Below, piece after piece: positions 526-64,000 of a stretch of DNA of 64,000 nucleotides; position 1 is the first letter of the stretch; every line of letters begins with the position of its first letter. The stretch covers positions 5,396,001 to 5,460,000 of the forward strand of contig CM075996.1 in NCBI GenBank assembly GCA_038087875.1, given 5' to 3'. Source of the stretch: Malacoraja senta (lineage: Eukaryota). Below the pieces are notes generated by a model, which was not told the DNA's origin, made no database searches, and saw only the letters and a program-made list of their open reading frames with translations. The translations under genes and the position numbers were made by a program.

Positions 526-3500
526 TCAAAAAACACTTGCAAGTTAACAAAGATCAAACTCTGTAATAAGAGTTGCACAACATTTCGCAAGTCAGCTGGG
601 CAGAGTTTTTGAAATACTGATTTAAAAAAAAACAACCACATTAGCTCCCCACCAAAGAGGAGTGGAATTTTCCATTACTGCATTCCAAGGATTTCCACTC
701 CTGGCCAAAAGCTTTGCTCTTTTCATCACCACTGCTGCTAAACAAACACAACACTCCAGTACTCAGGGGCACATCCACACAGAAACAGCGACGGACCAGT
801 TTGCTCTCATACTAATGTTCCATTCAACACGAACAACCACCATTTCTTCCGAGGAGATAATTATTCCTCAAATATTTCAGACTGAAGTTATCGCCAAGAC
901 ACAGCATTTTTTTTATTAAGCTGCTATGTTAGAACATTCTGTGAGCAAAATCCATAGACACAAAGTGCTGGAGTAACTCAGCGGATCAGGAAGCATCCAT
1001 GGAGAACATGGATAATAGACAATAGACAATAGGTGCAGGAGTAGGCCATTCGGCCCTTCATGCCAGCACCGCCATTCAATGTGATCATGACTGATCATCC
1101 CCAATCAGTACTCCGTTCCCGCCTTCTCCCCATATCCCCTGAAAAGGCTATCTTTAAGAGCCCTATCTAGCTCTTGATAGGTAAGTGATGTTATCTAGAT
1201 AGGTGAGGCTCCAGGTCAGAACCCTTCTTCCTCAACTGCTAGAAGTCCATTGCTCCACAGAGCCTGTCATCAAAGTGAAGAGAGACACAAAAAACTGGAG
1301 TAACTCAGCGGGTCAGACAGCATCTTTGGAGAAAAGGAATAGGTGATGTTTCGGGTTGAGACCGTTCATCAGACTTGTCCTCAAAGTGGTCTTTTCTGCC
1401 TTGATGTCAAACTCCTTGCATTTTTTGAAGCCCAAAGCCGGTCATCCTCGTGATAACATTTTGCCCCTACATTGTCCATTCCGCGGCGTTTCTGGCTACC
1501 CAGAATTGACAGTCCTTTTCTTTATCGCCCTGTTTTCTCTCTCCCTCCCAAACGTGCCACTGTGGGAGGCTGCAACTCATGGAGAGAGATTAGGAAAACC
1601 GGCCCTATATGCCTGTTCAATGAACAGAAATGTCAAATAGTGCTGTTCAAAGTAGTTGGGGGTGTCTGCAATCATTAGCCAACTTTCTTCATTCAACCAA
1701 AACAAATTAAATGGTCATTCATTTGATTATGTACGTGGAACCTTGCCAGGTGCAAAGTGGTTGCCACAATCTTCGACATAACAGCTCAGAAAGCAATTAA
1801 CTGACTGAGATGCAGTCTGGGGCATTCTGATGACACAAGTAACACTATACAAATGGAATTATTTTCTCCTTTCCTTAACATAGTCAACATCGGAGAAATC
1901 AATTGTACAGCAGAGGAAGAGGATATCAGGCAGAACACACTGAGAAAATTTAATACTGAATCAAAGGGAGACTTGGCAAAATAGGTACTGTAGTTAACAA
2001 TTTATTGGTCTATTATTGTCATGTGTACAGTGGAAAACTGTTTTGCATGTTAACCAGGCAGATCGTACTAAATATGATAGTGCAAAATAGAAAGGAAACA
2101 GAACACAGAATATAGTGTTATGGCTACAGAAGAAAGTGCAGATTAAAACAAAAAGTACAAAGGTCACAATAGGGTAGATTGGAAGATCGAGAATACTTCC
2201 TGAGAGGTCCATTTGAGAGGCTGATAACAGGGAAGAAGCCGTCTTGAATCTATTGATACGTGCTTTGCCGAAGGGCCTGTTTCCCCGCTGTATCACTAAC
2301 AAAGGGAGAAGAGTGAATGATCGGGGCGTGGGTAATTCTTGATTTTGTTGGCTGCTTTCCTGAGGCAGCATGAAGTGTAGATGGAGTTGTTGGAGGGAGA
2401 CTGGTTTGCACAATGGTCTGGGTTGCACCCACAACTCCCTGCAATTTCTTATGATTCTTGGGCAGATCAATTGCAACACCAAGGTGCGATGCGTCCCAAT
2501 GGTACGGTGCCTGGATAGAAACTTGCAGGAGTCATTGGAGTCATGCTGAATTTCCTTAGTGTTCTGAGGAAGTGAAGGCATTTCAAATTGTTGATATTTA
2601 GTTTAGTTTAGAGATACAGGCCCTTCGGCCCACTGACTCCGCGTCGACCAGCGATCCCCACACACTAACACTAGCCGACACACACTTTTACCGAAGCCAA
2701 GTAACCTACCAACCTGTACGTCTTTGGAGCGTGGGAGGACACCAGAGATCCTGGAGAAAACCCATGCAGGTCAAGGGGAGAATGTACAAACTCCGTACAT
2801 ACAGCACCCATGGTCAGGATCTCTGGCGCTGTAAGGCAGTAACTCTACCACTATGCCGCCCAAGGATGCCGAGGATCTTGAAGCTCTTGACCATCTTTAC
2901 TTCAGTGCCAAACTAGGGTGTGGGCACTCCACCTTGCTTCCTGAAGTTGATGACCAGCTCCTTCATTTTGCTGACACTGAGGGAGAAGCGTCTTGGCGCA
3001 AGAAATCCCCAGAATCGGACAGTTTCAATGGCTTTAAAAGCTGTATGTAGGAACATTACACTTGTACGTAGGAACATTAGGGCCTAAAAATAATGTTCCA
3101 ATGTTCCCTTGACTTGGGAACAAGTGACAATTGGAAAACTCTGCACATTACACTAAATGGTAGGAATGATCTTAGACCACTTACCCCAAAAATGTTAAAT
3201 TTTAGGAAATTTAATCGAGCCAAGATTCTAATGTCCTTGGAAATATTTTGTTTCGAGAGCAGGTATGATGCACAAATATTTGTGCATAAATAGATTATGA
3301 TGAGCCGATGACACAGAGTCTGGCTGTATTGTATGCTGTGTGGACAGAACATTAAATTGCAAAGAGATATTAATAGATTGAACAACCGGGTACAATTGTG
3401 CCAAATGGATTTCATCTTAGGCAATGTGAGGCCATCCATTTTGGATTAATTAGGAAAGAACAGAGGACTTGCAAAATGGTGAAAATCCAGAAGCAATCAC

Positions 3501-6500
3501 AGCCCAGAGAGATTTAAGAGCTTATAGGCATAGGTTAGTAAATTGTCATGGGCAGAAAGTAAGTAGACTAATGGAATGTGTAGAAAAGAACTGCAGATGC
3601 TGGTATATACCGAAAATAGACACAGTGCTGGAGTAACTCAGTGGGTCAGGGCAGCATCTCTGGAGAAAAAGGATGGGTGACGTTTTGGATGGGATTTGAA
3701 GAAGGGTCCCAACCCAAAACATCACAGCTGATGTCACTGGAAATACAGCAGTCTGTCTCAAGGAAGGTTGATACCTCTGCACTTAGTGTCATAGAGAGAT
3801 ACAGCATGGAAACAGGCCCTTCAGTCCAAATTGCCCACACCAGGCAACGTGTCCCAGCTACACTAGTCCCACCTACCCGCATTTGATCCATATACCTCCA
3901 AAAACTGTCCGATCCATGTACCTGTAACTGTTTCTGTTGAGATAGCCTCCGCCTCAAACACCTCCTGTGGCAGCTTGTTCCATACACCCACCACCCTTTG
4001 TGTGGGAAAAGCAACCCCTCAGATTCCTTATCCCCTTCACCTTAAACCTATGTCCACTGGTCCTCGATTCCCCTACTCTGGGCAAGAGACTCTGTGCATC
4101 TACCCGATCTATATACACCTCTCTATAGGATTACCCCTCATCCTCCTGCGCTCCAAGGAATGGAGTCCCAGCCTACTCAACCTCTCCCTATAGCTAAGAC
4201 TCTCTAGTCCTGGCAACATCCTCGTAAAAACTTTGACCTCAACTGAAATTATCAACCAGTCCAGTCAAACACGTAATTTTATCTACAGCAATGACTGGAT
4301 GACAGCAGATTAACAACTACTTTGCTTGGATTGATCGCACAGACAGCTGCACTCGGCAGGTCGACTGACTGACTGCCATCTGCTCACCAACTTCAACAAA
4401 ACTCAAACATATTACAGATTATCCTCTTCCTCTCTGTAACTGCGATACGAGTACAAAACCAAATATCACCTGGAAAGGCATCCATCTCACTCACAGCAAG
4501 TTCTCAGTTTATCTCAGGTGAAACGTTGCCCAACTGAGAGAATGAATAGTAGATGTGAAAAATCATAAGGTGCTTGCAAGCTCAAAATGGCAGGTACATC
4601 CACTCACCATTAAAACTTCCACATGTGCCCCGTGTTACTGCAGTGCCAAATAAGCTTGCTTTGTGGGAGAACACCGAGCCCAAAAAAACTACCCAGTGCT
4701 AAATGACAGTTGTAGGACCTTACACGAATGAACATCAACAGTTTGCTCGTCCTCATTGCAGTAGCACCATTAGAGTTGTGGCCAGTTATGTAGAAAATAA
4801 GTTTAGTTTGGAGACACAGTGTGGAAACAGGCCATTGGGCCCACCCAGTCCGCGATCTCCTACACTAACACTATCCTACACACACTAGGGACAAGTTATA
4901 TCAAACCAATGAGCCTGCAAACCTGTATGCTTTGGAGTGTGGGGGGAAACCAGAGATCCCAGAGTAAACCCACGCAGACCAACAGGGAGAAAGTACAAAC
5001 TCCGTACAGACAGCACAAAAATTTGCTTGGCTGTATTTTTATTTAACAACTCCTTCGGCATCACACTAAGTGTCAAACCAATGCCAGGCACCTTCTACAC
5101 CATCACGCGGCTGCAGAAAGAGTCAAGCTAGAGCTTCTTCATGACAACAGATGGCCACGCTAAGTGTGATGACTTGTGATGGGCTTGACTTTAACACATT
5201 CTGGTGAATGAGAGTGGGACGAGGGACATGGGGGTAGGTTAGCCCAGGTACAGGGGCAAGTCAGCAGTTTCCTGCAGGAGTAAAGGAGAAAACGATGTAA
5301 AAGGCATGAAGCTGCCTTGACCCCAAGCTGTGTTGAAAAGGATCAACGTTGGAATGGAGCTGCATTATTACACGGTGATTGCACCGAGGAGCAAGCAACA
5401 CCCTCTGGTTTTCCCAGCGTTTGAAGATGCACAATGCGTGTGGGATTTTGCCAAGTCTCTGAGATCTGTGCATTGTGCCCATCAACAGGAAGATCTAGGG
5501 ATCTGGTCGATGAATGAAGGAAGGAAGGGGTACTATGGAGATTTATTGGGATTGACACCATCAAGGATTAAATCACGGGGAGAGATTATACAAACTGCAA
5601 TTGAGATGTCTAAACGTGATTCGAGTGATGTTGTCAAAATATTAAAGAGACCCGATAGCATTCACCACTCAAATGCACAGATGGCTCTGCAGTATATCTG
5701 CTGCTTCAAGTCTCTTATTATGGAATGGGTATGAAGGAACTGCAGATGCCGGTTTAAACCGAAGATAGACACAAACGCTGGTGAAACTCAGCAGGACAGG
5801 CAGCATCTCTGAAGAGAAGGAAAGGGTGACGTTTCGGGGTCAAGACAAGTCTCTCGACCGCGAAACGTCACCATTCCTTCTCTCCAGAGATGCTGCCTGT
5901 CCCGCTGAGTTACTCCAGCACTTTGTGTCCATCTCTTTAATTATGGAATCTCATTCAAGCAAAAGATTCCATCCCAGTAGGTGCCACTGAAATGTCCTCT
6001 TGCATTTTGAAGTGACATTCATCTGATTTATGTTTAAGAAAGAACTGCAGATGCTGGAAATATCTAAGGTAGATCAGTCTGAAGAAGGGTCTCGACCTGA
6101 AACGTCACCTCCATAGATGCTGCCTCACCCGCTAAGTTTCCCCAGCATTTGTGTCTACCTTCATCTGATTTAGGCAACATCCCTTCTTCCTCCAAATAAT
6201 ATGTACCTGTGCGATGAAACCTGGCTTTGCTGCAAGCTGTTCCGAGAGGGGAAACCATTATCATGAAGGTTAACTGCTTCTACGCTCATCAGAAGATTGC
6301 TGCAGACCAGTTCTGCTCCATTACACACAAACCGTTGCTGCAGCAAAAACATTTGAGCTCCCATTTTTCGAATTCACCAAAAACACAGGTTTTTCCCCAC
6401 ACCAGTGTTAAGCGGAATGGTTTGCTGATATTGCAAGATTAAAATAAAAATATAGACAATTCACCAGGAAAGGAAGAAATACAGAACTGGGGCATGGCTG

Positions 6501-7592: not shown

Positions 7593-9195
7593 ATTCAATA
7601 AGCTGGGACGAGTCGAACAACCCAGTCCCTTTAAATACGACATTGGAAGACTGATAGGATGAAGGTGCCAGATAGGAAATATCCACATTATTGATCAAGC
7701 GCTGTAAAAGAGGGGAATCATGGAGCCAAAAAAGTTACCATTTTGAGTAAAGTGAGATGGTGGGGTAGTCTAATAACTTGAATCAATGCAGTGATGAGGA
7801 GAGGGAGAGAAAAAAAATCTAGTCTTGGCTCTCAGTCTTAAATCATGCTCTATTGACTTCAACTCAATAAAGGATTGAGGATCAACTACTGGTGCAGTGC
7901 TTTCCACAACTTATCCAAAACTCAGCGGCACACACTTGTGAAGTAAGGCACCTGAATGACATTAGAAAGCGGCCAGTGATCCTAGTCAGTGCCTTCAAAC
8001 AAAAACACACCAAAGGCAAAAGAAAATCAAAGCTGGCAACAGAAAAGCAGATTGCAAGAACGTCGACTTGAAAGCCTGAAAGTCCTTATGAAATTAAATC
8101 TCTGCTGTAATGACCAAAAGTGCTCCTTCACACAGCACAATGATAAGATGCAGATGCAGGCTGTCCTTGGGTTAGGTATGCCCGACTTATGGACACCTCG
8201 AAATGCGATTGAGCCCCCGTATTATTAAATTCCAACTTTGATGTACATGTGTACATACATACGAGTGGTAGAACTCATGTTTTCTATAGTAGCCCAAGAT
8301 CTTTTATAGTAGCCCAAGGAGCTGGTTTACTGTGGGGGAAAAAAGAACTGCAGATGCTGGTTTACAAAGACAAAGGCACTAAGTGCTGAAGTAGCTCAGG
8401 CAGCAAATCTGGAGAACATGGATAGGCGACGTTTCCGGTCAGGACCTTTCTTCTGACTGACTAATCGGAAAGATGGAACACAATTACGAGCGAACAGGCA
8501 AGAGTGGAAATAGTAGAGCTTGAAAAACAGTTTATGTTGCAAGCTTTGGGAATATTCTTGGATTTATTTTTGGTTTAAAAAAAAATCAGAACAGAGCTGT
8601 GAAATGTGACAACAATATTAACATCACATCTACTGTATAAATTCAATGCTATTATGTGGAATTTGGTAAAGTTCAAGCTTGCTGGAAGCATTCAAACGCC
8701 TACATTTATATAGTATTTTAATGCAGTAAAATATCCAAGGCATTTTGCAGGGGCATAATCAGATTAGTGAAAGAGATTAGATTTAAGATAAGAGATAGGA
8801 GCAGAATTAGGCCATTTGGCCCATCTACTCCGCTATTCAATCATATCTGATCTATCTCTCTCTCTCCGAACCCCATTCACCCGCCTTCTCCCTATAACCT
8901 CTGACACCTGTATTAATCAAGAATCTATATCTCTGCCTTAAAAATATCTGCGAATTTGGCCTCCACAGCCTTCTGTGGCAAAGAATTCCACAGATTCACC
9001 ACCCTCTGACTAAAGAAATTCCTCCTCATCTCCTTCTGAGGCTATGACCTCTAGTCCTAGACTCTCCCACTAGTGGAAACCTCTCCACATCCACTCTATC
9101 CAAGCCTTTCACTATTCTGTACATTTCTATGAGGCCCCCCTATTTCTTCTAAACTCCAGCGAGTATAGGCCCAGTACCGTCAAATGTCAAACTTA

Positions 9196-9362: not shown

Positions 9363-10077
9363 ATCAGAGGGGCCAAAGGGAGAATAGCAGTGTTCAGAAA
9401 CCACGTCACTTTGTTTTAGCAACTCTAATCATAACATTCAGCAATACAATTAGATTACAGTTTGTGTCCTATTCTTGTAGTGTGAAGCAGAGGTATTTAT
9501 AAGTTGGATACTGATAATTACAATGATATCACAAAGGAACAATTTACAATATCAAACATTTATACCTGCAAACACTGCCTTGCATTCTCCACTGCGCCCA
9601 GGGTAAACTATTTAAGTGGATTCGTTCATTGTGAAGTTGCTGCAGTGCTACAGCTGGTCAGGAGGTGTCACGAACAGCTAACAATTTCTGCTGTATATGT
9701 GAACAGAAGCATCAGACAAACTCCTACAAAATACAATTCAGTGGATATTACAGTTCCAACAACATTAGGTCTCTGCTGCTGTCTTTTTTTAAACTTGGGC
9801 TGTCAATTCTAAGTGCTGCATTGTTCCTTCACACACTTCAACCTCACTTCCACATGCAGAAACAACAGTGGTTGCATCTCTGGCGGTGCCAGGGAGTTGG
9901 CCCATGCAGGTGGTGAGAGGTAGGCACCAAGACAGCGGGCCTTATCACCAGTGCCCAATCAGGCTGACAAATGGGGTTTTTGTGTAGGAAGGAACTGCAG
10001 AAGCCGGTTTACAGCAATGATAGACACAAAATGCTGGAGTAACTCAGTGGGAGTATCTCTAGATAGAAGGAATGGAT

Positions 10078-10462
10078 GACAATAGACAATAGGTGCAGGA
10101 GTAGGCCATTTGGCCCTTCGAGCCAGCACCGCCATTCAATGTGATCATGGCTGAACATCCCCAATCAGTACCCCGCCGTTCCTGCCTTATCCCCATTTCC
10201 CCTGACTCCGCTATCTTTAAGAGCCCTATCTAGCTCTCTCTTGAAAGTATCCAGAGAACCGGCCTCCACCGCCCTCTGAGGCAGAGAATTCCACAGACTC
10301 ACAACTCTCTGTGAGAAAAAGTGTTTCCTCGTCTCCGTTCTAAATGGCTTACCCCTTATTCTTAAACTGTGGCCCCTGGTTCTGGACTCTCCCAACATCG
10401 GGAACATGTTTCCTGTCTCTAGCGTGTCCAAGCCCTTAACAATCTTATATGTTTCAATGAGA
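10078..10462 (-). mobile_element. CR1 3' fragment nested in a Penelope-derived repeat (similar short CR1 3' ends at ~1015-1172, 8790-9185, 37118-37272, 38605-38988, 46495-46770, 52139-52570, 59245-59630, 62483-63110)
   Basis: Shared RVVSLWNSLPQRAVEA-type coding end and the 3' UTR TGAATGGCGGTGCTGGCTCGAAGGGCCGAATGGCCTACTCCTGCACC. Confidence 0.88.
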
Positions 10463-11672
10463 TAATAATGATGACGTTTCGGGTCGAGACCCCGAAGGGT
10501 TAGGGTTAGGGTTAACCTTAACCCTAACGTTACCCATTCCTTCTATCCAGAGATGCTCCCGCTCAGTTACTCCAGCATTTTGTGTCTAATTGGGGATTTT
10601 CCTTCCCAAGCCTGTAGCAAAGCAGCCACCTCCTGGCCATCAAAGCAGAGTGTTGTCCCTCTCACTCCTTGGTCCTCACTGAAAGATGTCAACTGACAGC
10701 TGAGGAACAACAGTGGCTGGTTTTCAATGAGAGTCACAGAACACCCCCATTATTAGCAACGAACAATGTGTTTGTTCGCTGAATTAACACACACCGCACT
10801 CCTAAAAGGAAAATGTAAGATAGAGTCACACAGCGTGGAAACAGGCCCTTCGGCCTAACTTGCCCACACCACCCAATATGGCCCATCTACACTAGTCCCA
10901 CCTGCCTGTGTTTGGCCTATTTCTCTCTAAACTTACACTATCCATGTAGCTGTTTAAATGTTTCTTAATATATTGCAATAGTACCTGCCTCGACTACCTC
11001 CACCTGCAGCTCGTTCCGTACAACCACCACCATTTGTGTAAATAACTTACCCCTCAGATTCCTTTTAAATCTTTCCCCCCTCACCTTGAAACATTGCTAA
11101 CTGTCTCCTGATTTTTAGAATTACTGCCATGTCCAAAAATAATTATTACTATTACATTTTTTGCCATCTTGTCAGCAATTTAGCTACAATGTTTGTGAAG
11201 TTCATCACACAATTTAGAGCTTTGGATACATGGAAGCAATCGTACAATGAATGCCTGTATTACCTTATGACTATTTGGATTGACTCCCACTGAAAATTGA
11301 TTGGTGCTTTAAATAAAACCTATTATAAAGCTATAATTATCTTCTCTGCTGTCTGGATTTATAGAAAATTAGTAGGGCGGCACCGTGGTACAGCTGCTGC
11401 CACGCAGTGCCAGTAACCTGGGTTCAATCCTCTCTGTGTGGAGTTTGGACACTCTCAATGACTGCATCGGTTTCCTCCGGGTGCTCTGGCTTCCGCCTAC
11501 ATCCCAAAGACACGCGGGATTGCAAGTTAATTGGCCTCTGTAAAAATGGGATCATACAGAACTAGTGTAAACAGATGATCAATGGTCAGCATGGAACGGG
11601 TGGGCCGAAGGGTCTGTTTCCATGGCGTATCTCTAAAACGAAACTAAAATCAACTCATGAACACGTTGAGGG

Positions 11673-11955: not shown

Positions 11956-14900
11956 ACAAATCTGGATGAAGACCAGGTATGAGGAGTGGGATGATCGTAG
12001 CCATGTCCCTCCGTGGTTCAATAACATGCCAACTGGCAGGGTTCAGCTGTGCAGAACAATCACTTCACTGGTCTTCCACCTGTGGAACTGATTTTGCCAA
12101 AGATCGAAGGACAGGCAGTGAGATAACTATTTCAGTAAAATGCAATGGAGGATTTATGTCGAAGGACAGACGAGCATTCATGCAGCGCCATCTTATATTT
12201 CTCTGAAACATCCTACGGCACCACGCAGCAAATTACTTAGAAACTCAGTGGCTGCTACATGGGCAAATGTAGCTGTCACTGTGCACAGAAGATTTAATAA
12301 GCAGTTAATCTGTTTTTGGCAAAGTTATCGATGGAATTTAGCCAGCCTACCAACTGAGCACATTACTCATCCACAAAGCAATGGCACTAAGTCAATTTTT
12401 ATATAAAGAAATGGAACAGGTCAATGGGCTTTAATGCTCAACACCTCACATGAAGGACAGCACCTCGAAGAGTGCAACAGCAGTACTGCACCAAGATGTT
12501 CCAAACCAGGAATCTGATTCAAAGTTGGTCAGCAACTTGTCACACCCATTCCCCATAACATACAGCTAAGACGGTCATTCACATCCCTTGTACCAGCCTC
12601 AACGCTTAATCAAGATATGTATAGGAAGGAACTGCAGATGCTTGTTTAATTTGCCCCAGTGCACAAATTATCCCATCATGAGGTGGACACAAAATGCTGG
12701 AGTAATTCAGCGGGTCAGGCAGCATCTCTGGAGAGAAGGAATGGGTGACGTGTCGGGTCAACTGAAACGTCACGGATTCCTTCTCTCCAGAGATGCTGCC
12801 TGTCCTACTTAATCAAGATAAACTGAGACCCCTGGACTATCTTCAGTCAAGCTTTACTGAACTCTATCTTGCATTAAACATTTTCCCCCTTTATCATGTA
12901 TCTGTACACTGTGGACGGCTCGATTGTAATCATGTATAGTCCTTCCACTGACTGGTTGGCACGCAACAAAAGCTTTTCACTGCACCGCGGTTTATATGAC
13001 AATAATCTAAACTATGGCAGTCTGAAGCGTTGCCTATTCCTTCTCTCCATAGATGCTGCCTCATCCGCTGAGTTCCTCCAGCATTTTTGTCTATCTAAAA
13101 TAAGGCAGATGTTTCTTTCCCTGTGTTGGGAGAAGAAAGATGCTGAAGGAGGAAGAGCGAACCGAGATATAGCAGAAGGAATGGCGAAAGGGAAGAGGTA
13201 GATGTGTCTGGTGGTGGCACTGCTTTAGAGGTGGGAGAATTTACGGAAGGAAAGGGGGAACCGTATCCTTGCTCTGGGTGGGCAAGATCACATATGCGAG
13301 GTGAAACAGGAGGCGAAACCCCTACGTACACGGAGAGGAAACCACGGTTAAAACTAAAGGAAGATAAGTCAGAACCACTGGTGGAGAAGGTGTGCTAACA
13401 TAATAGTGATGACAGAGCCAGAGAAAATGGCAGAATGGAATCCTCACAGAAAGCAGGCTGGGTGGAGATGTAGTCAATGTAGCCACGGGAGTCCGTGGGC
13501 TTAAATAAAGGTCGATCACTGATCTATTTCCTGAGATGGTGACAGAAGTTGGGAAAGAGGCAGAATATGGACAGGCAGCAACATTTATACAACAAACAAT
13601 CAATCTGCTGGAGGAAAGCAGCAAGTCGAGTATCATCTGTGGGTGGAAAAGAATAATCAATGCTTCGGGTCAAAACCTGCATAAGGACTCATTTCTTTCC
13701 ACCCACAGATGTTACTCAACCCAATGATTTCCTCCAGCAGATTGTTTGTTGTTCCAGATTCCAGTTCTTATGTGACGAGCAGCATCTGTACAGTTATCAA
13801 TGCACTAGGGGAGAAACAAAGACAAGGCGAGGGTCTGAGTTGGACCAATCCATTGATTTGGACCCATGTGGCCTCCTATGGCTGTGCATTCGAGTTGGAA
13901 GAAGTGAATGGAGTTGAAGAAATAGTCATTTCATGTTGGAACGGGTTCAACTACACTTGGGAGAATGGCGGTGCAGAAGAGAGATTGGGGCCTGAGGAAT
14001 GGGCAAGCTAGGGGCAGCACTGATTCATTAGAAATGTGGAAGGCCATTCTGGTGCGCGATATGGATGCACAGGGATTGGACATCCGTGGTGAAAATAAGT
14101 CAGATGGGACAAGAAAACTGCAAACAATTAAAGTGGCAGAGGACATCAGAAACATAGAAAAATCGGTGCAGGAGTAGGCCATTCGGCCCTTTGAGCCAGC
14201 ACCACCATTTGCATTGTGGTGTTTTCAAGAGAGAGTTAGATTTAGCTCCGAGGGCTAAAGGAATCAAAGGATTTGGGGGAAAAGCAGGAACGGAATACTG
14301 ATTTTCGATGATCATGGCTGATCCTGCTTCCCCCCCTTTTCCTTTGATTCTTTTAGCCCCCAGAGCTAAATCTAACTCTCTCTTGAAAACACCACAATGC
14401 AAATAGGAGAAAAGACAACAGAAGACAGAATAGTGTCAGAGTGTCACAGAGAAATACAGCAAGAAAACAGGCCCCTTGGTTCACCAAGTTCAAGCTATCA
14501 ATACAATACAATACCGTTTATTGTCATTTGAACCTCAAATGAAGTTCAAACGAAATTTGGTTTCTGCTACCCACTTACACCAATTCCTCATTAATCATAG
14601 TTTTTGTATTCTACTCACATTCCTATCAACACCCCCGACCCTCCACCCAATTCTGCCTCACAGTTAGAGGATGAAATCCACACAGTGAGGGAGAGAAAGT
14701 GCACACAGACAACACCAAAGGTCAAGATTGTGTCCGAGTCTCTGCGGCTGTGTGTCGTTCTACCAGCTGTACTACGATATCGCGTTACAGAATCGAGGTA
14801 GAAATACATGTGTTATGTGATATAAGAACAGGCTTAAACAATTATTCCACCCTGGCAATCCTTGATGAGGAGACATAATTGGATTTGCATAGTTGGGGCC

Positions 14901-18092: not shown

Positions 18093-18235
18093 CTGCAAAA
18101 GAAATAGAAACTCAAGTTAGATTAACATTGCCACTTACTTTCCCCCCCGAAAAAGTGATGATCTTTGGAAGATAGACACAAAATGCTGGAGTAACTTAGT
18201 GGGACAGGCAGCATCTCTGGGAGAAGGAATGGGGT

Positions 18236-18263
18236 CTGAAGAAGGGTCTCGACCCGAAATGTC
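18236..18263 (+). ncRNA. Minimal hammerhead-ribozyme-like motif with a long stem I
   Basis: GGAATGGGGT-CTGAAGA-A-GGGT(CTCG)ACCC-GAAA-TG-TC-ACCCATTCC. Confidence 0.6.
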
Positions 18264-41095: not shown

Positions 41096-41464
<369 letters not shown>

Positions 41465-45267: not shown

Positions 45268-45295
45268 CTGAAGAAGGGTCTCGACCCGAAACGTC
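45268..45295 (+). ncRNA. Minimal hammerhead-ribozyme-like motif in a Penelope pseudo-LTR (ACO2 intron 8, sense)
   Basis: CTGAAGA-A-GGGT(CTCG)ACCC-GAAA-CG-TC. Flanks GGGT/GCCT can form stem I. Confidence 0.65.
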
Positions 45296-47029
45296 GCCTA
45301 TTCCTTCTCTCCATAGATGCTGCCTCACCCGCTGAGTTCCACCAGCATTTTTGTCCACCGCTCATTTTTTATAGTAATATCTTTTGAGGATTAAATGTCG
45401 ATCACTACATATCTGATGGGATGAAATGGGTTGTAAGAAAGAAACGCATACAGCATGAACATGGTATAAACCACTAGGGCTGAACAACCTGGTTCTGTAG
45501 AGGGTCATCTGTGTGACTCCCCACTGATATGGAATATGCTGCTGGTGATAATTCTCTAGGCTTGGGTGGTTTGAAGTTCTCTAGGCTTGGGTGGTTTGAA
45601 GTACCAGAAGGTAACTCGCAGTAGTAGGCCATTTAGCTCTTCATTGAAGAGCAGAGATTTTAATTTAATAAGACTACTTGGTTTAAGTTCAGTAAGGCGC
45701 CATTTAAATGGCTGCAATTGTGGAATCAACAGAGAACACCGAGAAGTACAGCACGGGAACAGGCCCTTCGGCCCACAAAGCCTGTGCTGAACATGATGTT
45801 GAGTTAGTCTCCTCTGTCTGCACATCATCCGCATCCCTCCATTCCATGCATATCCATGTGCCCATCTAAAAGATGTATGTTAATAGTGCCAGCCAACTGC
45901 AAAGTAAATGGTTATTAATCTATTATTGTGGGTCATGTAATTATAATTTGTGACCAACAATCAATGTTTGTTGTTTGTAACGAATAATTTAATTGGGGGG
46001 AAAAAATATGTGGGTCTGAGTTTGTTTTGATGTGTGACCACACTACCTCCTCTCTTTCTAAACTTAATTATCTACTGAAAATTGTATTGGGCCTACTGCA
46101 GAAACTAATTGATTTCAACCTGTACACATCTTTTTAAAATGTGTTTGCAAAACATCTATTTGCATGCACTTCCAGGGACTTGAGTGCACAGAGGTGGATT
46201 TTGTCATCCTTTCCATGCTTGTACTCGGAGCAGGAGGGAGTAATTTGTTCCACCTGGTCTTGAAGAACGTCAGGATTGTTGATCGGTCTGCTGAGCTTCA
46301 ATCCCACAGGAGTAAACATCCTCGTCAACAGCTTCATGGGATTAAGCTGTTGACTGGCTGGTTTCCTCATGGCTTTGAAATCCTTTTTATTTTTGTGGGC
46401 CTGCCAAACTCTGTGTGCCCAAAGGTGCAGTATCACAGAAAAATAACACTGAACATTTGAAGCAGGAATCAAATGTACCCTTTGGATGGATGTCATAAGG
46501 AATAGGAGCAGAATTAGGCCATTCGGCCCAACAAGTCTACTCCGCCATTCAATCATGGCTGATCTATCTCTCCCTCCTAACCCCATTCTCTTGCCTTCTC
46601 CCTATAACCTCTGACACATGTACTAATCAAGAATCTATCTATCTCTGCCTTAAAAATATCCACTGACTTGGCCTCTACAGCCGTCTGTGGCAAAGAATTC
46701 CACAGATTCACCACCCTCTGACTAAAGACATTTCTCCTCATCTCCTCCCTAAAAGAACATCCTTTAATTCTGTCACTGCTCTCTTCCTCTGACGTTGGCC
46801 GATTTGTGTTTGCCTCGTGTCCAGTTCACAAGACATTTGTCTGTAAGCCTGCTACTGACACGCAAGTCCTCGACCTCAATTGGTGTTAAGTGGTCAAGCT
46901 ATGGTTCCATGGTCAAGTTATAATTCACTCCTCTGACCCTTCTTCGGTCCCTTTCCTGGGGAGGGATACGTTTCCTGCTTTGTTTACATGGTGTCAGAAG
47001 GGTCGGGGATTGGTTTTGGCTGCGTTACC

Positions 47030-47409: not shown

Positions 47410-47437
47410 GACGTTTCGGGTCGAGACCCTTCTTCAG
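47410..47437 (-). ncRNA. Minimal hammerhead-like core (further intact cores: 6079-6106 plus; 19803-19830, 23460-23487 and 48825-48852 minus)
   Basis: Reverse complement reads CTGAAGA-A-GGGT(CTCG)ACCC-GAAA-CG-TC. Confidence 0.55.
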
Positions 47438-47946: not shown

Positions 47947-50900
47947 GTAAGAACAGTTTGATTTTAAGACCAACCCTGTTTTGCCAGGCCTGCTGGTGCT
48001 TGGTCAATAGACTGTGACCTCTTGATAGCTGAGATAGCGGTGACCTGTTGATAGAGCAGCAAGGATGCGCAGTGGTAGAGTTGCTGCCTTACTGCACCGG
48101 AGACCTGGGTTCGATCCTGACCAGGGGTGCCTGTCTGTACGGAGTTTGTACATTCTCCGTTTCCTGCGTGGGTTTTCTCCGGGATCTCCGGTTTCCTCCC
48201 ACGCTCCAAAGACATCCAGGTTTTTAGGTTAATTGGCTTGGTATATTTGTAAATTGTCGCTGGAGTGTGTAGGATAGCGTTGATGTGCGGGGATCAGTGG
48301 TCGGCACAGACTCGGTGGGCCGAAGTGCCTGTTTCCTTGCTGTATCTGTAAACTTAACTCAACCAAATCTGCAAGGGACTTATCTGAACACATTATTGAT
48401 TTTTTATTGAAATCAAGAAAAACTACAGGTGCTGGAAATCTGCACCACAAAAACTGGAAACGCTCACCAGGTCGGGCAGTATCTGCGGAAAGAGAAACTG
48501 ACATAAAGTGCTGGAGTAACTCGGTGAATCAGCGAGCATCTCTGGAGGACTTGAATATGGAACATTTTGGGTCAGAACCTTTGTTCAGACTGCAGTTCCT
48601 TCGTTTGACATTTTCTCCACAGCAAATTCTCCTCAAGATATGCCTACTTTGAAGTTTCCCCCCTCTCTCCGGCAGGGGTTCTGTAAGACCTCTGACGTTT
48701 TGGGTCAGGACGCTTTTTCAGACTGTTTAAGAAGGAACTGCAGATGCTGGAAAATCGAAGGTAGACAAAAATGCTGGAGAAACTCAGCGGGTGAGGCAGC
48801 ATCTATGGAGCGAAGGAAATAGGCAACGTTTCGGGTCGAAACCCTTCTTCAGACCCGAAACGTTGCCTATTTCCTTCGCTCCATAGATGCTGCCTCACTT
48901 GCTGAGTTTCTCCAGCATTTTTGTCTACTCCCGCTTCTTTAGACTGATTGTTGTAGGGGGGAAGGAAGCTGGAAACGAGATTGGGGGGGAGACAAAGCTT
49001 GGCAGGAAAGTTAATTTCAGGCTGAACACTGTTCTGCAAAACTGAAAGAAAATAATAGTTACGGGGAGAGATGGGATAAAGGGAATATTTCTGATATCTT
49101 GGGCTCGGGATTCTGTAATAGGCTGCTGACGAAGCCACCTGGTTGATAGATTAGTGAGGGTACTTAGAGAGGGAGAGAAAACAAAGGAATATGAAAAGGC
49201 TGTGAAGTGCAGACCAGAGTGGTAGGCCTGGGTAGAGTGGATGCGGAGAGGATGTTTCCACTCAGTGGCAGAGTCTAGGACCAGAGGGCATGGCCTCAGA
49301 ATAAAAGGATGTAGCTTTAGAAAGGAGATAAGAAGGAATTAATTTAGTCAGAGGGTGGTGAATCTGTGGAATTCTTGGCCTCAGAAGGCTGTGGAGGCCG
49401 TCAATGGATATTTTTAAGGCGTAGATTGATAAGATTCTTGATCAGTAAGTGTGTCGGGGGTTATGGGGCGATGGCAGGACAATGGGGTTGAGAGGGGAAA
49501 GATTGATCGGCCATGATTGAATGAATGGTGGAATAGACCAAATGCGCCGAGTGGCCTAATTCTGAACTTATGAACTACGAAATGCCCAGCCCATCAGGCG
49601 GCATCAGTGGAGAGGGAAACAGCCTTGTGTAATGTTGTAGATGGGTATCCAACAGCTTAACTGGCCATTTCTGATACAAACAGAGAAAGCGAGTCACCTA
49701 GGAATAGTTGAAATCAATATCATGTTCTGAAGACCGCAGAATGTTATATGATGTGCCGGGTCTGAGTGGAACTGTGCAGGAAGGAATGCACGGATTAGTT
49801 TAGTGATACCGCCTAGAAACAGGCCCTTCAGCCCAGGGAGTCGGCGCCGACCAGCGATCCCCACACAATGGGGGGGCATTTTACAATTTTAACCAAAGCC
49901 AAATAACCTACAAACCTGTTCGTCTTGATCAATGGTGTTTTATCATTAATGTTTTATTATTATTAATTAATGTTTAGTGTTTTCTGAGTCATTCGTAACT
50001 GTCACTATGTCATGTTGTTACTTGTGGGCGGAGCACCAAGGCAAATTCCTTGTATGTGAATACTTGGCCAATAAACTTACTTACTGGTGGTGGAGAAAAC
50101 CCACACAGGTCACGGGGTGAACGTACAAACTCTGTACAGCCAGCACCCGTAGTCGGGGTCGAACGCGGGTCTCTGGCGCTGTGAGGCAGCAAATCTACCG
50201 CCGTGCTGCCAAGGAATGGGGAATTAGAGCTAATTAAATGTAATGAACAGACTTTTATTGTGTGTACTGTAGATGGATGGGGATGGGGTATCATTAGATT
50301 ATAAATTGGCCACAATATTACTGCCTGCATGCGATAACATTCAGAGTTTGAGAGCTACAAGATGCTGAGTATTTTTATACATGCAACCGAGCATAACATT
50401 TACAGAAACAGACAAAACACCTGCTTACTGCATTGTGGCTAATTACTGTTAGGTCTTGTGATCTCATCCTAGGCATAAAGTCATAAATCAGGGAGAAAGC
50501 AAGAGAATGGGGTGAAGAGGGAAAGATCGATCAGCCGTGATTGGATGGCAGAGTAGACTTGATGGGCCGAATGGCCTAAGCTCCTATCACCTGTGAACTT
50601 CTGAAAATGTATATTTTCTTTAGTTTTGCAGGCTGCATTTTGGATTGTAAATTGCAGCATCTTCAGTAATAATCCTCTCAACAGATTCCCCATTAAAATG
50701 CAGATGCTGAGAGTGTACAGTATTCCCTGCGGTAATGGAGCTAGCCTTGGTTGTTCTTACAGCCTGCCTGCCTACTAAAGGCAGAAATTACTGCCTGTTG
50801 GCTGTGTGGGCATGGTTTTAATGCAATGATGTTGTTGTTTTTTCCTGCAGAGGATAGTCAGATGAAGATGTGATTCATTTTGTGCTGACAGTTTGAGTTG

Positions 50901-51417: not shown

Positions 51418-53348
51418 TTACTTCCACAATATGTGTTTTATTTTGGCTAGTTAGTTTGGGTTTGAGGCGTACGTACGCTGGATATTGCGGGTTCCTCAAT
51501 TTGTAATGAGCCAAAGGTACAAAATGCTGAAGGATCTTAGTCGGCGTGGATGACTTTATGCTGTCTGCCTCCATGTGACTGCCCTGAATCTCTGAGCTGC
51601 ATTTAAACTGCATATTAAAATAACCTACTTGTGAGCTGTAGTTGATTGACCCTGCCGCTTATTAATTCTCTTTACTAGCAGCTTGTAAAGGAAAAAACAT
51701 GATCATTCTGCTACGATCGCTCTCGCGTACTCCTAAATGAATCAACCATAAATTGTAGTCTCTTGGATTTATTGCTGTTGGGTAAATGGTTCCCTTGCCA
51801 CCCACCAGGGGCTGGATCCTGCACTCTCTTCCCTTCCCTCCACTTCACCCAGAGGCCCTGGATTCCGTGCTCCTTCCTGCCCGCTGGGTCCCGGTTCCTC
51901 TGCACCTGCTTCCCGCCTGGCTACTTTGGGAGTACTGAACCATTTGACAAACTGGGCCTGCTGTAACGTGTCTGGATGTACCTCGGGGGGGGGGGGGGGG
52001 GGGAATGGGTTAAGCATGCCAACCAGGTACAGTGACGTGCAACAGAATGAGAGGAGGTTCAATTGGAGAGCAGTTCAGTCCATCTGGGCTGACTGGCCTG
52101 TTTCCCATTCTACACATTGACTTTAATATTGGCGTGAAGACAATAGACAATAGGTGCAGGAGTAGGTCATTTGGCCCTTTGAGCCAGCACCACCATTCAA
52201 TGTGATCATGGCTGATCTTCCCCAATCAGTACCCCGTTCCTGCCTTCTCCCCATATCTCCTGACTCCACTATTTTTAAGAGCCCTATCTAGCTCTCTCTT
52301 GCAAGCATCCAGAGAACCTGCCTCCACTGCCCTCTGAGGCAGAGAATTCCACAGACTCACCACTCTCTGTGAGAAAAAGTGTTTCCTCGTCTCCGTTCTA
52401 AATGGCTTACACCTTATTCTTAAACTGTGCTCCCTGGTTCTGGACTCCCCCAACATCGGGAACATGTTTCCTGCCTCTAGCGTGTCCAAGCCCTTAACAA
52501 TCTTATACGTTTCAATGAGATACCCTCTCATCCTTCTAAAATCCAGAGTGTACAAGCCCAGCTGCTCCATTCATCATCCTTCTATTTCTGGATTTATTGT
52601 GCTATCATAATTGGTTGGACCAGTTCTGCCTTCATTTGTTTATATATTAAGGGATGGGATAAGCCGTCTGCCCATCCTGTGGGATATTCCCTTGTGTGGG
52701 AATCTTTAATGCCTGTGACGTTTGCTTCCCAGCAGCTCTCAGCATGAACAGATGCCGTTCTCCTGTACCAGACTTCCATTTAATTTGGTTACTCAATCAG
52801 CTATCTGTACCTTTTTATCGTAAACGTCTTGTCTCTTTTTTTTGCTTGACTACTCGAAGTCGTCTTGGTAAATGTTTTTAATTTTGCTCGTGTTTCTTTG
52901 AACTGTTTAAAAGTTTACCCGTCAGTGCAATGAGGCCCAGGAAAATACAATTTTCTTGGGCTCCAATCAGGTGCATCCAAGGTGTAAAAGACAGGATGAT
53001 AGGTAGACAGAAATGCTGGAGAAACTCAGCAGGTGAGGCAGCATCTATCGAGTGAAGGAAATAGGCAACGTTTCGGGTCGAGACCCTTCTTTAAGCAGGA
53101 TGGTAAATTTTTTCTTATAAGCTGCTTGTAAAGAGCGTGGGGATGATCAATCACAGCTCACAAACTGAAGGGTTTTTTTCCCATAGAGTTCAAATGCAGT
53201 TTTTAATAGTTTTTCTTTCATTCTACACTCAATTTTATTTTCGTCGTCCTTTACATTCTCAGTGTCATGGGCTGAGGTTTATTATGGCCACGTGTACCAA
53301 GGTACAGTGGAGAGCTTTGTTTAATATACTCTCCAATCAAATCGGATG

Positions 53349-57680: not shown

Positions 57681-57931
57681 GTAAAACACCACAACGCACG
57701 TGTTGCTGTGTTTTTAACTCTCAAACAAGTCCAGTGAAATACCCAGTCCAGACCAGACGTGATCAATTGCGTTCAACGGAATGGGAGAGAGAAGAAAGGT
57801 GGGAATGTAGGGTACGACAAGCATCGGAGGAGAATACTGACCCAATCCTTGCCCTTCCTTATCTCTGTGTCTCTCCCCCTCTCCCCTGACTCTCAGTCCG
57901 AAGAAGGATCTCGACCCGAAACGTCACCATG

Positions 57932-58529: not shown

Positions 58530-59100
58530 TGTCAGGGAACAGGTTTTGGGGAAGGGTGTGAAGGACCAAGACAGAGGAACAGGTTGGGGGGGGGAAGGGT
58601 GTTGGAGAACAGGTTGGGGGGGGGAAGAGTCAGGGAACAGGCTTAGAGGAAGGCTGTTAGGGAACAGACCTGGGGAAATGGTGTTTGATATGTGTAGGAA
58701 GGAACTGCAGATGCTGGTTTAAACTGAAGATAGACACAAAATGCTGGAGCAACTCAGGACAGGCAGCATCTCTGGAGGGAAGGAATGGGTGACGTTCAGG
58801 GTCGAGACCCTTACTCCAACATTTTGTGTCCATAAATGGTGTTAGGATCAGGTTTGGGAAGGGTTATGAAATAGGCTTAAAGGAAGGATGTTAGGGAACT
58901 GATCTGGGGAAAGGATGTTAGCATACAGGGAAAAGGTGTTAGGGAGGTTTGGGGAAATGGGAGAAGGAGATTTGAGGAAGAGTTATTGAGGAAGAGTGCA
59001 GGGGAACAGAGATTTTGGCAAGGGTGTTAGCGATGACAAGGTTTGTGGGAAAGGTGGGATGGGATTTAGGGAAGGAATCCTGATGTTTATGGAAGATTGT
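58530..59100. repeat. Degenerate G-rich minisatellite (GGAACAGG..TGGGGAAGGGTGTTA-like units) interrupted by a Penelope-derived repeat
   Basis: Recurrent gggaacagg / ggaagggtgtta motifs at ~25-30-bp spacing. Confidence 0.6.
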
Positions 59101-59867
59101 GGTGGGACATTTCAAATTGGGGGACATTAGTCCCACCTGCCCACGTTTGGTCCATATCCCTCCAAACCTGTCCTAACCACTTACCTGTCTGACTGTTTCT
59201 TAACGTTGAGATAGTTTGAACATTATTTCACGGCAGTGGGCTTAGAAACATAGAAAAATAGGTGCGGGGGTAGGCCATTCGGCCCTTCGAGCCAGCACCG
59301 CCATTCAATATGATCATGGCTGATCATCTAAAATCAGTACCCCGTTCCTGCTTTTCCCCCATACCCCTTGATTCCTTTAGCCCCAAGAGCTAAATCTAAT
59401 TCTCTCTTGAAAACATCCAGTGAATCGGCCTCCACTGCCTTCTGTGGCAGAGAATTCCACAGATTCACAACTCTCTGGGTGAAGAAGTTTTTCCTCATCT
59501 CAGTCCTAAATGGCCTACCCCTTATTCTTAAACTGTGGCCCCTGTTCTGGACTTCCCCCAACATCTCCCTTTTCCTAATCTGACACCATTCAGATAATAA
59601 TCTTCCTGTTCTTGCCACCAAAGTGGATAACCTGACATGTATCCACATTCTGAGGGTCTCAAAATGTGGATACATTGGAACTCCTGTTCCAATGTTAAAT
59701 GTGCTCGATCTGCACCAACAGCGAGAGGAGGCCGTCTTTGCTTGCCTACTTGTGCAGGAAGTGAACTGCAGATGCTGGTTTACACCGAAGACAGACACAA
59801 AACGCTGGAGTAACTCAGCGCGACAGGCAGGTTTCGGGGTCCAGACCCTTTCTTCAGACTGACCTAC

Positions 59868-61045: not shown

Positions 61046-64000
61046 ATCGCATGGGCACCTCCGCTCCTCCACTACAGCGGCGGGGGTGGGGGCGAGGGCG
61101 AGGTTCAGGCAGTAAGGTACACACACACACTGTCAGGCTTCCAGCATAAACACATACAGCTCGGCAAACGCGCACAGCTTTGGATCTTTGACCAGATTAT
61201 ATTCCCCCCACGTGCTTGAGCGAGTTTTCCTGCATTCACAAAATAATCCATGTTTACTAGCTGGGTGTCTGTTACGAGACAGAAAGACATGTATCCAATT
61301 GTGTAGGAAGGAACTGCAGATGCTGGATTAAATCGAAGATGGACACAAAATGCTGGAGTAACTCAGCGGGTCAGGCAACATCTCTGGAGAGAAGGAATAG
61401 GTGATTTTTCGGGTCACCTATTCCTTTTCTCCAGAGATGCTGCCTGACCCGCTGAGTTACTCCAGCATTTTGTGTCCATCTTCATGTATCCAAATATTCC
61501 TAATTGCCTTTCTAAATATTCCTAATTACAGTTTTACTGTTCTTTTTTGTTTTATAAACCTTGTTTCTCGGGGTATCTAAATTGTATTAGTTGTTTAAGT
61601 TATGACATCGGATGGAAGCTGCATACCAAATCTCGTTGCACCTATGTGCAATGACAATAAAATATATTATTATTATTAAAGCTGGAGGTGATCAGAATTG
61701 CTCCAGCCCTCCTACTTAAAGCACTACTCTGGGCTAGGAGCTGTGGCATTTAGGATTAGATAAACAATTGTCCCTTTATGATTCTCATTTAGAGTCGTCG
61801 AGTCATAGAACGTGGAAACTGGCCCTTCGGCCCAACTTGCTCACACCGACCAACATGTCTCATGTAGTCCCACCTGTCTGCATTTGGCCCATATCCCTCC
61901 AAACCTGTCCTATCCATGTACCTGTCCAAATGTTTCTGAAACGTTGCGATTGTCCCTGCCTCAACTACCTCTTCCCGGCAGCTCGTTCCATTCACCCATC
62001 AGAACATTTACATTTTAAAAAAAGTTGTGTTCACTAAAAGTTATGGTCACTAACTTCAGAAAGATCTTTCACTGGCACTTCAACCACTTGCCAACCCGTT
62101 TCCTAAGTTTAGGACCAATATTACCCCTTCTTGTGTAGGAGGGAACTGTAGATGCTGGTTTACACCGAAGATAGACACAAAATGCTGGGGTAACTCAGCA
62201 GGATGGGCGGCATCTCTGGAGAGAAGGAATGGAAGGATAGAAGAAACGTCACCCATTCCTTCTATCCAAAGATGCTGCCTGTCCTGCTGAGTTACTCCAG
62301 CATTTTGTGTCTATCTCGCCTTTCTTGGGTCTGACCATCTATGCAGTGGGTCAAAATATCCTCCTGGATGTATTTAAAAAAAAATCCCACTTCCCTCTCT
62401 GCCTTTCACACTGAAGCAATCCCACTTAAAACTGGGAAAGTTAGAAATCCCCTGGGATGTAATCCCATTAGTCTAACACAAGGTCATAAGTGATAGGAGC
62501 AGAATTAGGCTATTCGGCCCAACATTCAATCATGGCTGATCTATCTCTCCCTCCTAACCCCATTCTCCTGCCTTCTCCCTATACCGGTCACCTGTACTAG
62601 TCAAGAATCTATCTATCTCTGCCTTAAAAATATCCATTGACTAGGCCTCCACAGCCTTCTGTGGCAAAGAATTCCACAGATTCACCACCGTCTGACTAAA
62701 GAAATTCCTCCTCATCTCCTTCTTAAAGGAACGTCCTTTAATTCTGAGGTTATGATCTCTAGCCCTAGACTCTCCCTCTTAGACAATAGACAATAGGTGC
62801 AGGAGTAGGCCATTCGGCCCTTCGAGCCAGCACCGCCATTCAATGTGATCATGGCTGATCATCCCCAATCAGTACCGCGTTCCTGCCTTCTCCCCATATC
62901 CCCCGACTCCGCTATTTTTAAGAGCTCTATCTAGCTCTCTGTTGAAAGCATCCAGAGAACCTGCCTCCACCGCCCTCTGAGGCAGAGAATTCCACTTCTC
63001 CTCTTGTGGAAACATCCTCTCTATCCAAGCTTTTCATTATTCGTTAAGTTCCAATGAGGTCCCCCCTTCATCCTTCTAAACTCCAGCGAGTACAGGCCCA
63101 GTGACGTCAAACATTTCTCCTTAATGGTCTACATGTCTGTTCTATCTCCTGCAGACTGTATTGTACCAGAGCAAAATGATGGACCTTTTTTCTGTTTCTA
63201 AGATTCACCCACATCATCTCATTCAAAGAGCTTTCTAAGATATTCTCCCTCATTGCTAGTGTCGGACTCAATCAGAATTCCAATGCCACCTCCCCTACAC
63301 ATCCCACATACACCACAAGATTCTATCCCCGGGATTGTTCTGCGTCTTGTCCTGCCTCCAGTGATGTCCCTGGGATAGTAACCTAGAATCGTAGAGCCAC
63401 GCCGCACAGCACAGGCCCTTCGGCCCAAATCCTCCATGCTGACAGTGATGTCTCTCCGCACTAATCCCATTTGCCCGCGTAATGCCAGTATACCTTCAAT
63501 TTCTTTCCTGTCCAAATGCTTTTAAAATGTTGGAATTGTACCTGCCTCTACCACCACCTTTGGGCAGAAACTATAGAGGACCAGGATGAAAATCACAGTG
63601 AAAGGCCAGGAACACTAAATGATGATTCTGTTCCACTCATCATTCTGATACAATGTCATCATGCTGAAGTGATAACTTCAGAGATGCGACCTGGTGTATG
63701 TTTACATACTCTGTTGTGCAGTAGGAATTTCATTGTCCTATCTGGGACACATGACAATAAAACACTCTTGACTCTTGGTGTGCGAAGGATTTGTTATTCT
63801 TATTATTTATTCATATTGAAGGATGTGAACATCACTGGCATTTAGTGCCCATCCCTGAATGTCCTTGCGATTATGTTGTGGCATCTCTACAGTCCCTCTG
63901 GTGAAGGTTCTCCCACGGTGAAGCTGGGGAGCAAGGGCTGTGTACGGTTGCGATGGCTTCTGCCTTGTCTTTAGCACTCACAGGAGTTCACTGCAACTGA

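Follow-up and report, generated by a model that had tools for sequence, protein, structure and literature searches.

Penelope-like elements (PLEs) with an endonuclease (EN+) have been described as carrying pseudo-long terminal repeats (pseudo-LTRs or pLTRs), one of them inverted, with an optional tail of 30–40 bp at one end and target-site duplications (TSDs) of 8–10 bp (PMC8557442, PMC3846280; PMC8969392 is a further source on PLE structure). The presence of minimal hammerhead ribozymes (min-HHRs) in these pLTRs is already known from PMC4209133, in which thousands of copies per genome are dispersed singly or on opposite strands, and in which monomers were inactive and dimers weak in cleavage assays. 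In later work, one of nine frog dimers was active (10.64898/2026.07.22.740005), and for the Anolis element PAc cleavage was reported only with the element's own protein, both strands were cut and extended, and the tail was mapped between two reverse transcriptase (RT) start sites (PMC11167929). Here, we describe a repeat family of this kind in 64,000 nt of Malacoraja senta DNA (the window; assembly GCA_038087875.1, contig CM075996.1, positions 5,396,001 to 5,460,000, forward strand). The repeats are pLTRs of a Neptune-type PLE, following a GIY-YIG open reading frame (ORF), and we consider it probable that they are short, dead insertions of this pLTR, whose family carries a min-HHR, and that the element's own enzyme made each of them by copying its RNA from the 5′ end.

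Using a profile built from the window copies, we identified 49 repeat pieces (E < 0.01; 24 on the plus and 25 on the minus strand) in 33 loci between 953 and 62323, and none in the reversed window searched as a control, in agreement with the more than 25 copies counted in an earlier, sequence-only reading of this DNA. A longer profile added five short pieces (1198-1230, 3694-3725, 6030-6073, 10470-10492 and 48693-48725). The unit of ~130 bp given in that reading is longer than most copies, with at least 80 nt present in 35/49 pieces, at least 100 nt in 16/49, and the span from the core region to the tail complete in only 8/49. The hammerhead had also been taken for the end of the repeat, the quoted text being antisense; on the sense strand, which is that of the GIY-YIG frame at 20122-20533, it opens the repeat unit. 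The pieces are likely short, dead ends of the PLE. An Rfam scan of the window (E ≤ 5) returned 48 matches, none at gathering score and none to a hammerhead family, and its MIR1507-type matches are merely the inverted pLTR pairs.

The copy that ties the repeat to a PLE comprises the following features, to which a second copy continuing into the 3′ untranslated region (UTR) can be added:

20122..20533 (+): 3′ fragment of the PLE ORF, with a C-x4-C-x2-C linker remnant and GIY-YIG, family stop lost (Pfam, homologs, motif scan, reads)
20534..20637 (+): pyrimidine-rich 3′UTR between endonuclease and hammerhead
20638..20738 (+): pLTR of the ORF-bearing copy, with the short 3′ end and no tail (descriptor, reads)
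C3 at 20643, predicted cut at 20670/20671 (+): hammerhead of the ORF-bearing copy, with a G>T at 20668 that breaks ACGU
57860..57928 (+): second copy continuing into the 3′UTR, subfamily A, stopping just before an assembly gap

The ORF fragment matched the GIY-YIG family in Pfam (PF01541, E = 1.7e-4) with 22.3 bits, just below the cut-off of 22.6, and has 35 homologs (best E = 2.5e-56), the closest of which are from skates and rays (74% identity to a PLE fragment of Leucoraja erinacea and 70% to Rhinoraja longicauda). An RT motif precedes the GIY motif in 11/11 homologs showing both, placing the endonuclease C-terminal to the RT, and a C-x4-C-x2-C linker, of the CX2-5CxxC type known from Neptune, was found in 21/35 by a strict pattern. 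The window copy is broken off before the linker, with the last two cysteines kept and the first at the broken edge, and the RT is present in the homologs only. The family stop, with its A at 20532 in most reads, is lost in the window copy and is followed by 109 nt of pyrimidine-rich 3′UTR before the hammerhead. Pfam and the homologs bear out the earlier proposal that this copy marks the repeat as a PLE terminal repeat; the order of ORF and repeat likewise stands, but not that the one directly follows the other, since the 3′UTR intervenes. Linker and homologs point to the Neptune clade for a window copy that is itself without an RT, and the linker is likewise carried by Nematis (PMC8557442).

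The locus resembles Neptune EN+ PLEs (PMC8557442) in its C-terminal GIY-YIG, the CX2-5CxxC linker of its homologs, 5′ truncation, an inverted 5′ copy and a tail of 30–40 bp at one end, and differs from them in that the products in the window are mostly pLTR-only, with a sharp 5′ boundary and targets other than microsatellites. With a C-terminal GIY-YIG, pLTRs, inverted copies, the optional one-end tail of 30–40 bp and TSDs, together with the Neptune-type linker and min-HHR features and no retrozyme-like tandem, the element behaves as a standard EN+ PLE.

To define the hammerhead, we used a descriptor (CUGANGA, a stem II of at least 4 bp, GAAA), which matched eight sites in the window versus a mean of 0.08 in 50 shuffles (0.02 with UH). 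The window motif reads CUGAAGA-A-[4-bp stem II with a 4-nt loop]-GAAA-CG-UH, and UH follows all eight sites; the palindromic ACGU noted earlier in place of stem III occurs in 6/8 and fails in 2/8. Beside that of the ORF-bearing copy, the sites are as follows (all by descriptor):

6079..6106 (+): min-HHR with the native 2-bp stem I, within the inverted pair 6030-6164
18236..18263 (+): min-HHR with AUGU as stem III, at the predicted hairpin apex of the pair 18168-18356 (also by folding)
19803..19830 (-): min-HHR in the tail-bearing solo pLTR 19700-19836 (TSD score 12), first stem I pair lost
23460..23487 (-): min-HHR in the tail-bearing solo pLTR 23366-23488 (TSD score 10)
45268..45295 (+): min-HHR in the pair 45154-45359, which the other arm is predicted to sequester (also by folding)
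47410..47437 (-): min-HHR in the short solo pLTR 47341-47441
48825..48852 (-): min-HHR in the pair 48724-48929, which the other arm is predicted to sequester (also by folding)

An alignment search of metagenomes with the endonuclease returned 80 loci (41–56% identity), 71 of them with enough downstream DNA. The same core was present 100–213 nt behind the endonuclease match in 33/71 of these invertebrate relatives, and the downstream search of the antisense strand of the 71 gave no match. Stem I reaches at least 3 bp in 27/33 of the relatives with the core; in the window family the native stem I stops at 2 bp and is followed by A-C. Covariation was examined in 15 chosen rows (5 window, 10 invertebrate), which are related and were compared under a hand-drawn structure, so that the test lends support and no probability. 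The drawn stems pair in 86.7% of cells, compared with 62.7% when shuffled and 10–40% when slid, two-sided change is seen in six of eight stem pairs, and the second stem I pair is C-G in 10/10 invertebrate rows and G-C in 5/5 window rows. Judged from these alignments, the hammerhead is genuine at the level of the family, with compensatory changes in stems I and II, and the minimal type I hammerhead first proposed from the core boxes, stem II and UH is upheld. That stem II keeps its pairing while varying holds across families; among the eight descriptor-positive window copies there are one-sided or wobble changes only. A similarity of window and invertebrate sequences behind the cut site is visible by eye but marginal (12–663 of 1000 shuffles were as good, with a profile E of 1.6 or worse) and was left uncounted. 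An exact motif scan of viral contigs gave no match.

By its sequence, the motif is a member of the published min-HHR class (PMC4209133), since the main invertebrate family found here matches the printed Acropora digitifera Neptune row (supplement Fig. S3) and 2-bp stems I have precedents in Culex, Drosophila and Oikopleura in the same supplement. Shared features are CUGANGA with one extra base, a G-C first pair in a 4-bp stem II, GAAA, ACGU, UH and a position about 100 nt behind the endonuclease; the point of difference is the native stem I of the window family, 2 bp and then A-C, which is among the shortest in the published range. No cartilaginous fish appears among the rows of Fig. S3 examined or by word search of that supplement, nor in the excerpts of PMC6155905 and PMC7229834, and in the open-licence literature we found no paper on PLE hammerheads in cartilaginous fish, with one chondrichthyan covered by the retrozyme preprint (10.64898/2026.07.22.740005). 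On the ribozyme side, our analysis is a catalogue entry, adding cartilaginous fish to the about 40 animals published in 2014.

The pLTR copies are direct insertions, since a TSD score of at least 8 was obtained for 15/28 curated units (10/16 pairs and 5/12 others) versus 1.2% of 756 mismatched controls. The TSDs are about 10–13 bp long, and the insertion targets of curated copies are not microsatellites. Solo copies, beyond those already given with their hammerheads, are:

953..1375 (-): two solo short pLTRs, 953-1230 (split by the end of a long interspersed nuclear element, LINE) and 1276-1375 (TSD score 11)
8334..8460 (-): solo pLTR with tail, subfamily C
13017..13097 (+): solo short pLTR, stem II deleted
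41317..41408 (+): solo short pLTR, intronic in the aconitase gene
53001..53092 (-): solo short pLTR, TSD score 8
59750..59862 (-): tail-bearing solo pLTR whose internal deletion spans the cut site

Both ends of these insertions are well defined. There are two classes of 3′ end, one about 66 nt and the other about 100 nt beyond the cut site, the latter with the tail of 30–40 nt; reads reveal both classes outside this window as well, with mixed flanks beginning behind 20736/20737 and the tail continuing behind 20738. The arrangement of two internal RT start sites bounding the tail, with the hammerhead upstream of them, is like that of Anolis PAc (PMC11167929). The 51 hand-curated 5′ ends comprise 18 no more than 8 nt from the start of the core, 21 within the hammerhead itself, 3 close to the cut site, 7 further downstream and 2 in the UTR. 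Of the 20 pieces extending to the core start, 18 therefore stop within 8 nt and 2 continue into the UTR, giving an end rate of 0.18 per nt at the core start versus 0.002 in the body. Genome-wide, loose ends with mixed flanks pile up before 20640/20641 (839 and 731 in RNA reads, 177 and 158 in DNA contigs), and this boundary was seen in bulk RNA reads and both DNA runs, among the matches listed. Depth over the pLTR is 3.8–7.5 times that over the ORF in reads and contigs, where contig depth is no copy number.

The hammerhead cannot itself make this 5′ boundary, since in type I hammerheads the cut falls downstream of the core. A hammerhead-cut RNA as the template was not supported, with 3/51 5′ ends near the cut site and no such loose end among the matches listed. 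Two hammerhead-only pieces (3694-3725 and 48693-48725; n = 2) end no more than 2 nt from the predicted cut site and could copy a 5′ cleavage product. The boundary sits on TCAGTCT, with TCAGT three bases before the core, and fits the initiator consensus, YYANWYY (matched in 4/8 copies tested). As to the 3′ side, a conserved AGATGCTG in the pLTR body and tail (e.g., 48724-48805, minus strand) can pair with either of two CAGCAT motifs, which lie about 30 nt apart, each just upstream of one 3′-end class; this pairing is a possible RT start signal, and a similar CAGCAT spacing in the invertebrate relatives L020 and L023 is statistically marginal.

Under the reading that we favor, transcripts would likely start at the initiator-like TCAGT, and the RT-endonuclease would nick both target strands about 10–13 bp apart, with the nicks priming at two internal start sites like those found for the anole element in vitro. 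Copying of a 5′ pLTR would end after 100–135 nt, where the RT reaches the end of the RNA and runs off, and would leave solo pLTRs. Should both nicks prime, each at its own site on one RNA (twin priming), inverted pairs with a single tail would result, their two cDNAs joined through brief self-complementary stretches within the hammerhead (GTC/GAC, stem II). The hammerhead would likely work only in master elements, as a dimer or with help from the protein, the dispersed copies being passengers. That the inverted pLTR with its one-sided tail reflects twin priming on a single RNA, and that solos are run-offs marking the transcription start, is a tentative proposal, which we would not yet call probable. 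Twin priming in LINE-1 comprises two nicks, two primings and an inversion joined by microhomology, with a flanking TSD; the second priming site of LINE-1 is variable and internal, whereas here both would be fixed, about 34 nt apart.

The inverted pairs on which this proposal bears are:

3577..3725: tail arm and hammerhead-only arm
5726..5935: tail/short, TSD score 10
6030..6164: an arm of little but tail abuts a short arm with hardly any overlap, TSD score 13
9979..10590: tail/short, split by a CR1-type LINE 3′ end, telomere repeats at the apex
12617..12808: tail/cut, TSD score 13
18168..18356: short/tail, TSD score 11
19902..20107: tail/short, subfamily A, abutting the ORF-bearing copy
22400..22610: tail/short, TSD score 17
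34396..34606: short/tail, subfamily C
38575..39102: cut/tail, junction split by a CR1-type LINE 3′ end
45154..45359: tail/short, junction on a 3-nt overlap, GTC
48497..48604: short arm and 15-nt tail-only inverted arm
48724..48929: tail/short, mirror image of the 45268 junction
58690..58833: tail/short, TSD score 10
61299..61484: tail/short, TSD score 11
62130..62316: tail/short

The frequent inverted pairs reported in the sequence-only reading are real. In 18 head-to-head configurations, picked and classed by hand, the tail motif is on exactly one arm in 15/18, on both arms in 0/18 and on neither in 3/18 (P about 0.003 under independence), and by hand count all 13 fully classable pairs have one tail. 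Six pairs (also by hand count) have a short arm that reaches further 5′ and a second arm holding the tail that the short arm lacks; these are not fold-back copies of one cDNA. In 6030-6164 and 48497-48604, the tail arm is little more than tail. Junctions mostly differ, often lying on short self-complementary words such as GTC/GAC, and the palindromes were accordingly formed individually.

The same junction words would also suit an alternative in which the pairs arise by fold-back self-priming, of one cDNA or on an antisense template, as proposed in PMC3846280, or else from two RNAs bound to a protein dimer, the anole protein being a predicted dimer (PMC11167929). In its favor, too, arm content overlaps in most pairs, and such overlap on one RNA requires strand displacement. 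Fold-back cannot, however, give a tail to one arm when the loop-holding arm lacks it, as in the six pairs above, and two independent RNAs predict tail/tail in about 17% of cases, where 0/18 were seen (P about 0.03). We regard this alternative as rather unlikely.

Along with the overlap of arms and the hand-picking of configurations, further points weigh against copying from an RNA 5′ end and twin priming. The RT is absent from the window copy, and the three tail-less cases comprise an old pair, a missed 15-nt tail stub and two short copies 82 nt apart. The arms of a pair are 63–96% alike and the partner is the mutual best match in only 2/12 pairs, so a template shared by the two arms is not supported; nor did the anole assay see a strand difference in start site (PMC11167929). 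The evidence from read placement concerns the matches listed, beyond which lie 2788 loose ends and 266 joints, and the UTRs of other subfamilies align poorly at 85%, which inflates the step between pLTR and UTR. TCAGT is not kept in the main invertebrate family, which reads TCGCT. That the 5′ boundary is the RNA 5′ end we infer from insertion ends and the initiator consensus only.

The insertion anatomy is nonetheless the more useful part of this analysis, bearing as it does on how PLEs form inverted ends and a one-sided tail. Nothing on PLE twin priming was found in the open-licence literature, and neither it nor a one-tail asymmetry is discussed in the excerpts of PMC11167929, whose PAc belongs to another clade, Poseidon. 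If the proposal is true, the very many events of this kind in skate genomes would already form a record in which the PLE insertion mechanism can be examined, and the one-tail rule, the near-abutting arms and the sharp 5′ boundary form a prediction that can be counted in any skate assembly. In the invertebrate Neptune loci, we noted a canonical inverted copy upstream of the ORF in L001, L004, L006, L011, L019, L028, L030, L033, L038, L047, L055 and L073, and 4/19 unlinked pieces begin 6–12 nt before the core. The apex of the pair 9979-10590 holds inverted telomere repeats (10493-10530; about three TTAGGG, then CCCTAA-like), possibly from telomerase-type repair or a template jump at the join.

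Solo pLTRs could instead be self-propagating, non-autonomous elements resembling short interspersed nuclear elements, with an internal promoter of their own, copied in trans by the PLE protein, in line with the non-autonomous spread suggested in the sequence-only reading. Solo copies do have defined 5′ and 3′ ends and TSDs, and pLTRs outnumber ORF pieces about 4–7 to 1 by depth. A solo pLTR would also hold both promoter and RT start sites, an internal pLTR promoter having been shown for Drosophila Penelope (PMC2377424), trans-mobilization between pLTRs has been described (PMC3846280), and the window lacks any UTR-bearing copy of subfamily C. Against this, for both subfamily A and subfamily B there is a window copy with a UTR or ORF that is 94% identical to solos, the varied junctions indicate that palindromes were not amplified as units, and run-off yields the same ends without a separate lineage. 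Solo spread as a general account is improbable in our view, although some solo copies may be mobilized in trans as non-autonomous units, and we retain run-off from an RNA 5′ end as the preferred origin of the solos.

The dispersed copies in the window are probably not working ribozymes. The sequence-only reading had envisaged a very large reservoir of hammerhead-like motifs, at roughly one repeat per 2–3 kb, but core, stem II and UH are intact in only 8/49 copies, about one per 8 kb. Among inserted copies, the core is conserved at 257/296 positions (0.87) and the flanks at 2426/2816 (0.86; p = 0.79), and compared with flank columns without a subfamily split (0.91) the core is lower (p = 0.04); the hammerhead core thus decays neutrally once inserted. 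The conservation test set in the sequence-only reading thus gives a split answer: the core is conserved, and its stems covary, across families, with no excess over the flanks among window copies. Intact same-strand cores lie 1.4–25 kb apart and so have no tandem partner for a dimer fold, a search of the window for head-to-tail arrays with a hammerhead per unit found none, and six same-strand neighbors within 300 nt are separate or nested insertions. Folded alone, five pLTR copies showed no unusual stability (z -0.53 to +0.53) and no hammerhead in their minimum-energy folds. In a crude two-copy cofold, other pairings (-24.1 kcal/mol) were preferred over the drawn dimer (-9.4).

These results bear on the idea that the copies are active intronic ribozymes cutting host pre-mRNA, here of the aconitase gene. 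The eight intact cores and the abundance of the pLTR family in RNA reads would be in its favor, as would the pair 18168-18356, for which stem II is predicted to form (P 0.85–1.0) with the core largely open at the apex. However, the native stem I has 2 bp, the probability of stem II is ≤0.14 in 11/12 sites folded in context, the core is no better conserved than its flanks, and tandem partners are lacking. Two RNA runs over 20110-20760 showed no pile-up of read begins or ends, the cut site included, in libraries that would not reliably reveal 5′-OH ends; RNA-seq reads of Anolis PAc likewise have no ends at the cut site (PMC11167929). Reads entering unlike sequence made up 93% and 70% in the two runs, as expected for read-through of dispersed copies. 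With monomers inactive and dimers weak in PMC4209133, and 8/9 frog dimers uncleaved in 10.64898/2026.07.22.740005, intronic ribozyme activity is very unlikely here, the one candidate exception among the copies being the predicted hairpin of 18168-18356. There the inversion begins at the cut site, so that the pair is predicted to fold into an extended hairpin whose apex carries a hammerhead core that is nearly intact; in effect, chance would have built a type I hammerhead whose stem I is long. Much of the stem II region has been lost by short deletions in 13017-13097 and 22489-22517. In the single-cell run X21, reads over 20110-20760 are mostly minus-strand in most ORF and pLTR bins, an excess that oligo-dT priming in the UTR tract accounts for in part; the strands are in balance in run X23, and strand bias was not used as evidence.

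Finally, that the repeats are non-LTR retrozymes, i.e., tandem units processed to circular RNAs, is scarcely credible: like retrozymes (PMC7229834, 10.64898/2026.07.22.740005) they are non-coding, pLTR-related and equipped with a type I hammerhead, and the preprint both derives retrozymes from pLTRs and places them in one chondrichthyan genome, but retrozymes form tandem arrays in which every unit has its hammerhead, whereas the window copies are scattered solos or head-to-head pairs, with same-strand intact cores at least 1.4 kb apart, no head-to-tail array and, among the matches listed, no RNA reads at any of 15 joints, so that the retrozyme-like spread suggested earlier is not borne out.

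The host setting of the repeats includes exons of a mitochondrial-type aconitase on the plus strand (Pfam Aconitase at 39156-39581 and 41096-41464), and across the host-gene span (39200-57690) the pLTR pieces show no strand bias (5 plus, 6 minus). Other mobile elements in the window include a long CR1-type LINE ORF2 of 816 amino acids at 30394-32844. CR1-type LINE 3′ ends lie in or against pLTR pieces at 1016, 10078, 25277 and 38992; an enrichment of such ends in pLTRs (4/20, p about 0.06–0.10) was not counted as evidence. At one of these four ends, a 6-bp duplication spanning the cut region of the hammerhead is clear. Two Tc1/mariner-type transposase frames, one of them near full length, are located at 16240-16872 and 54035-54946.

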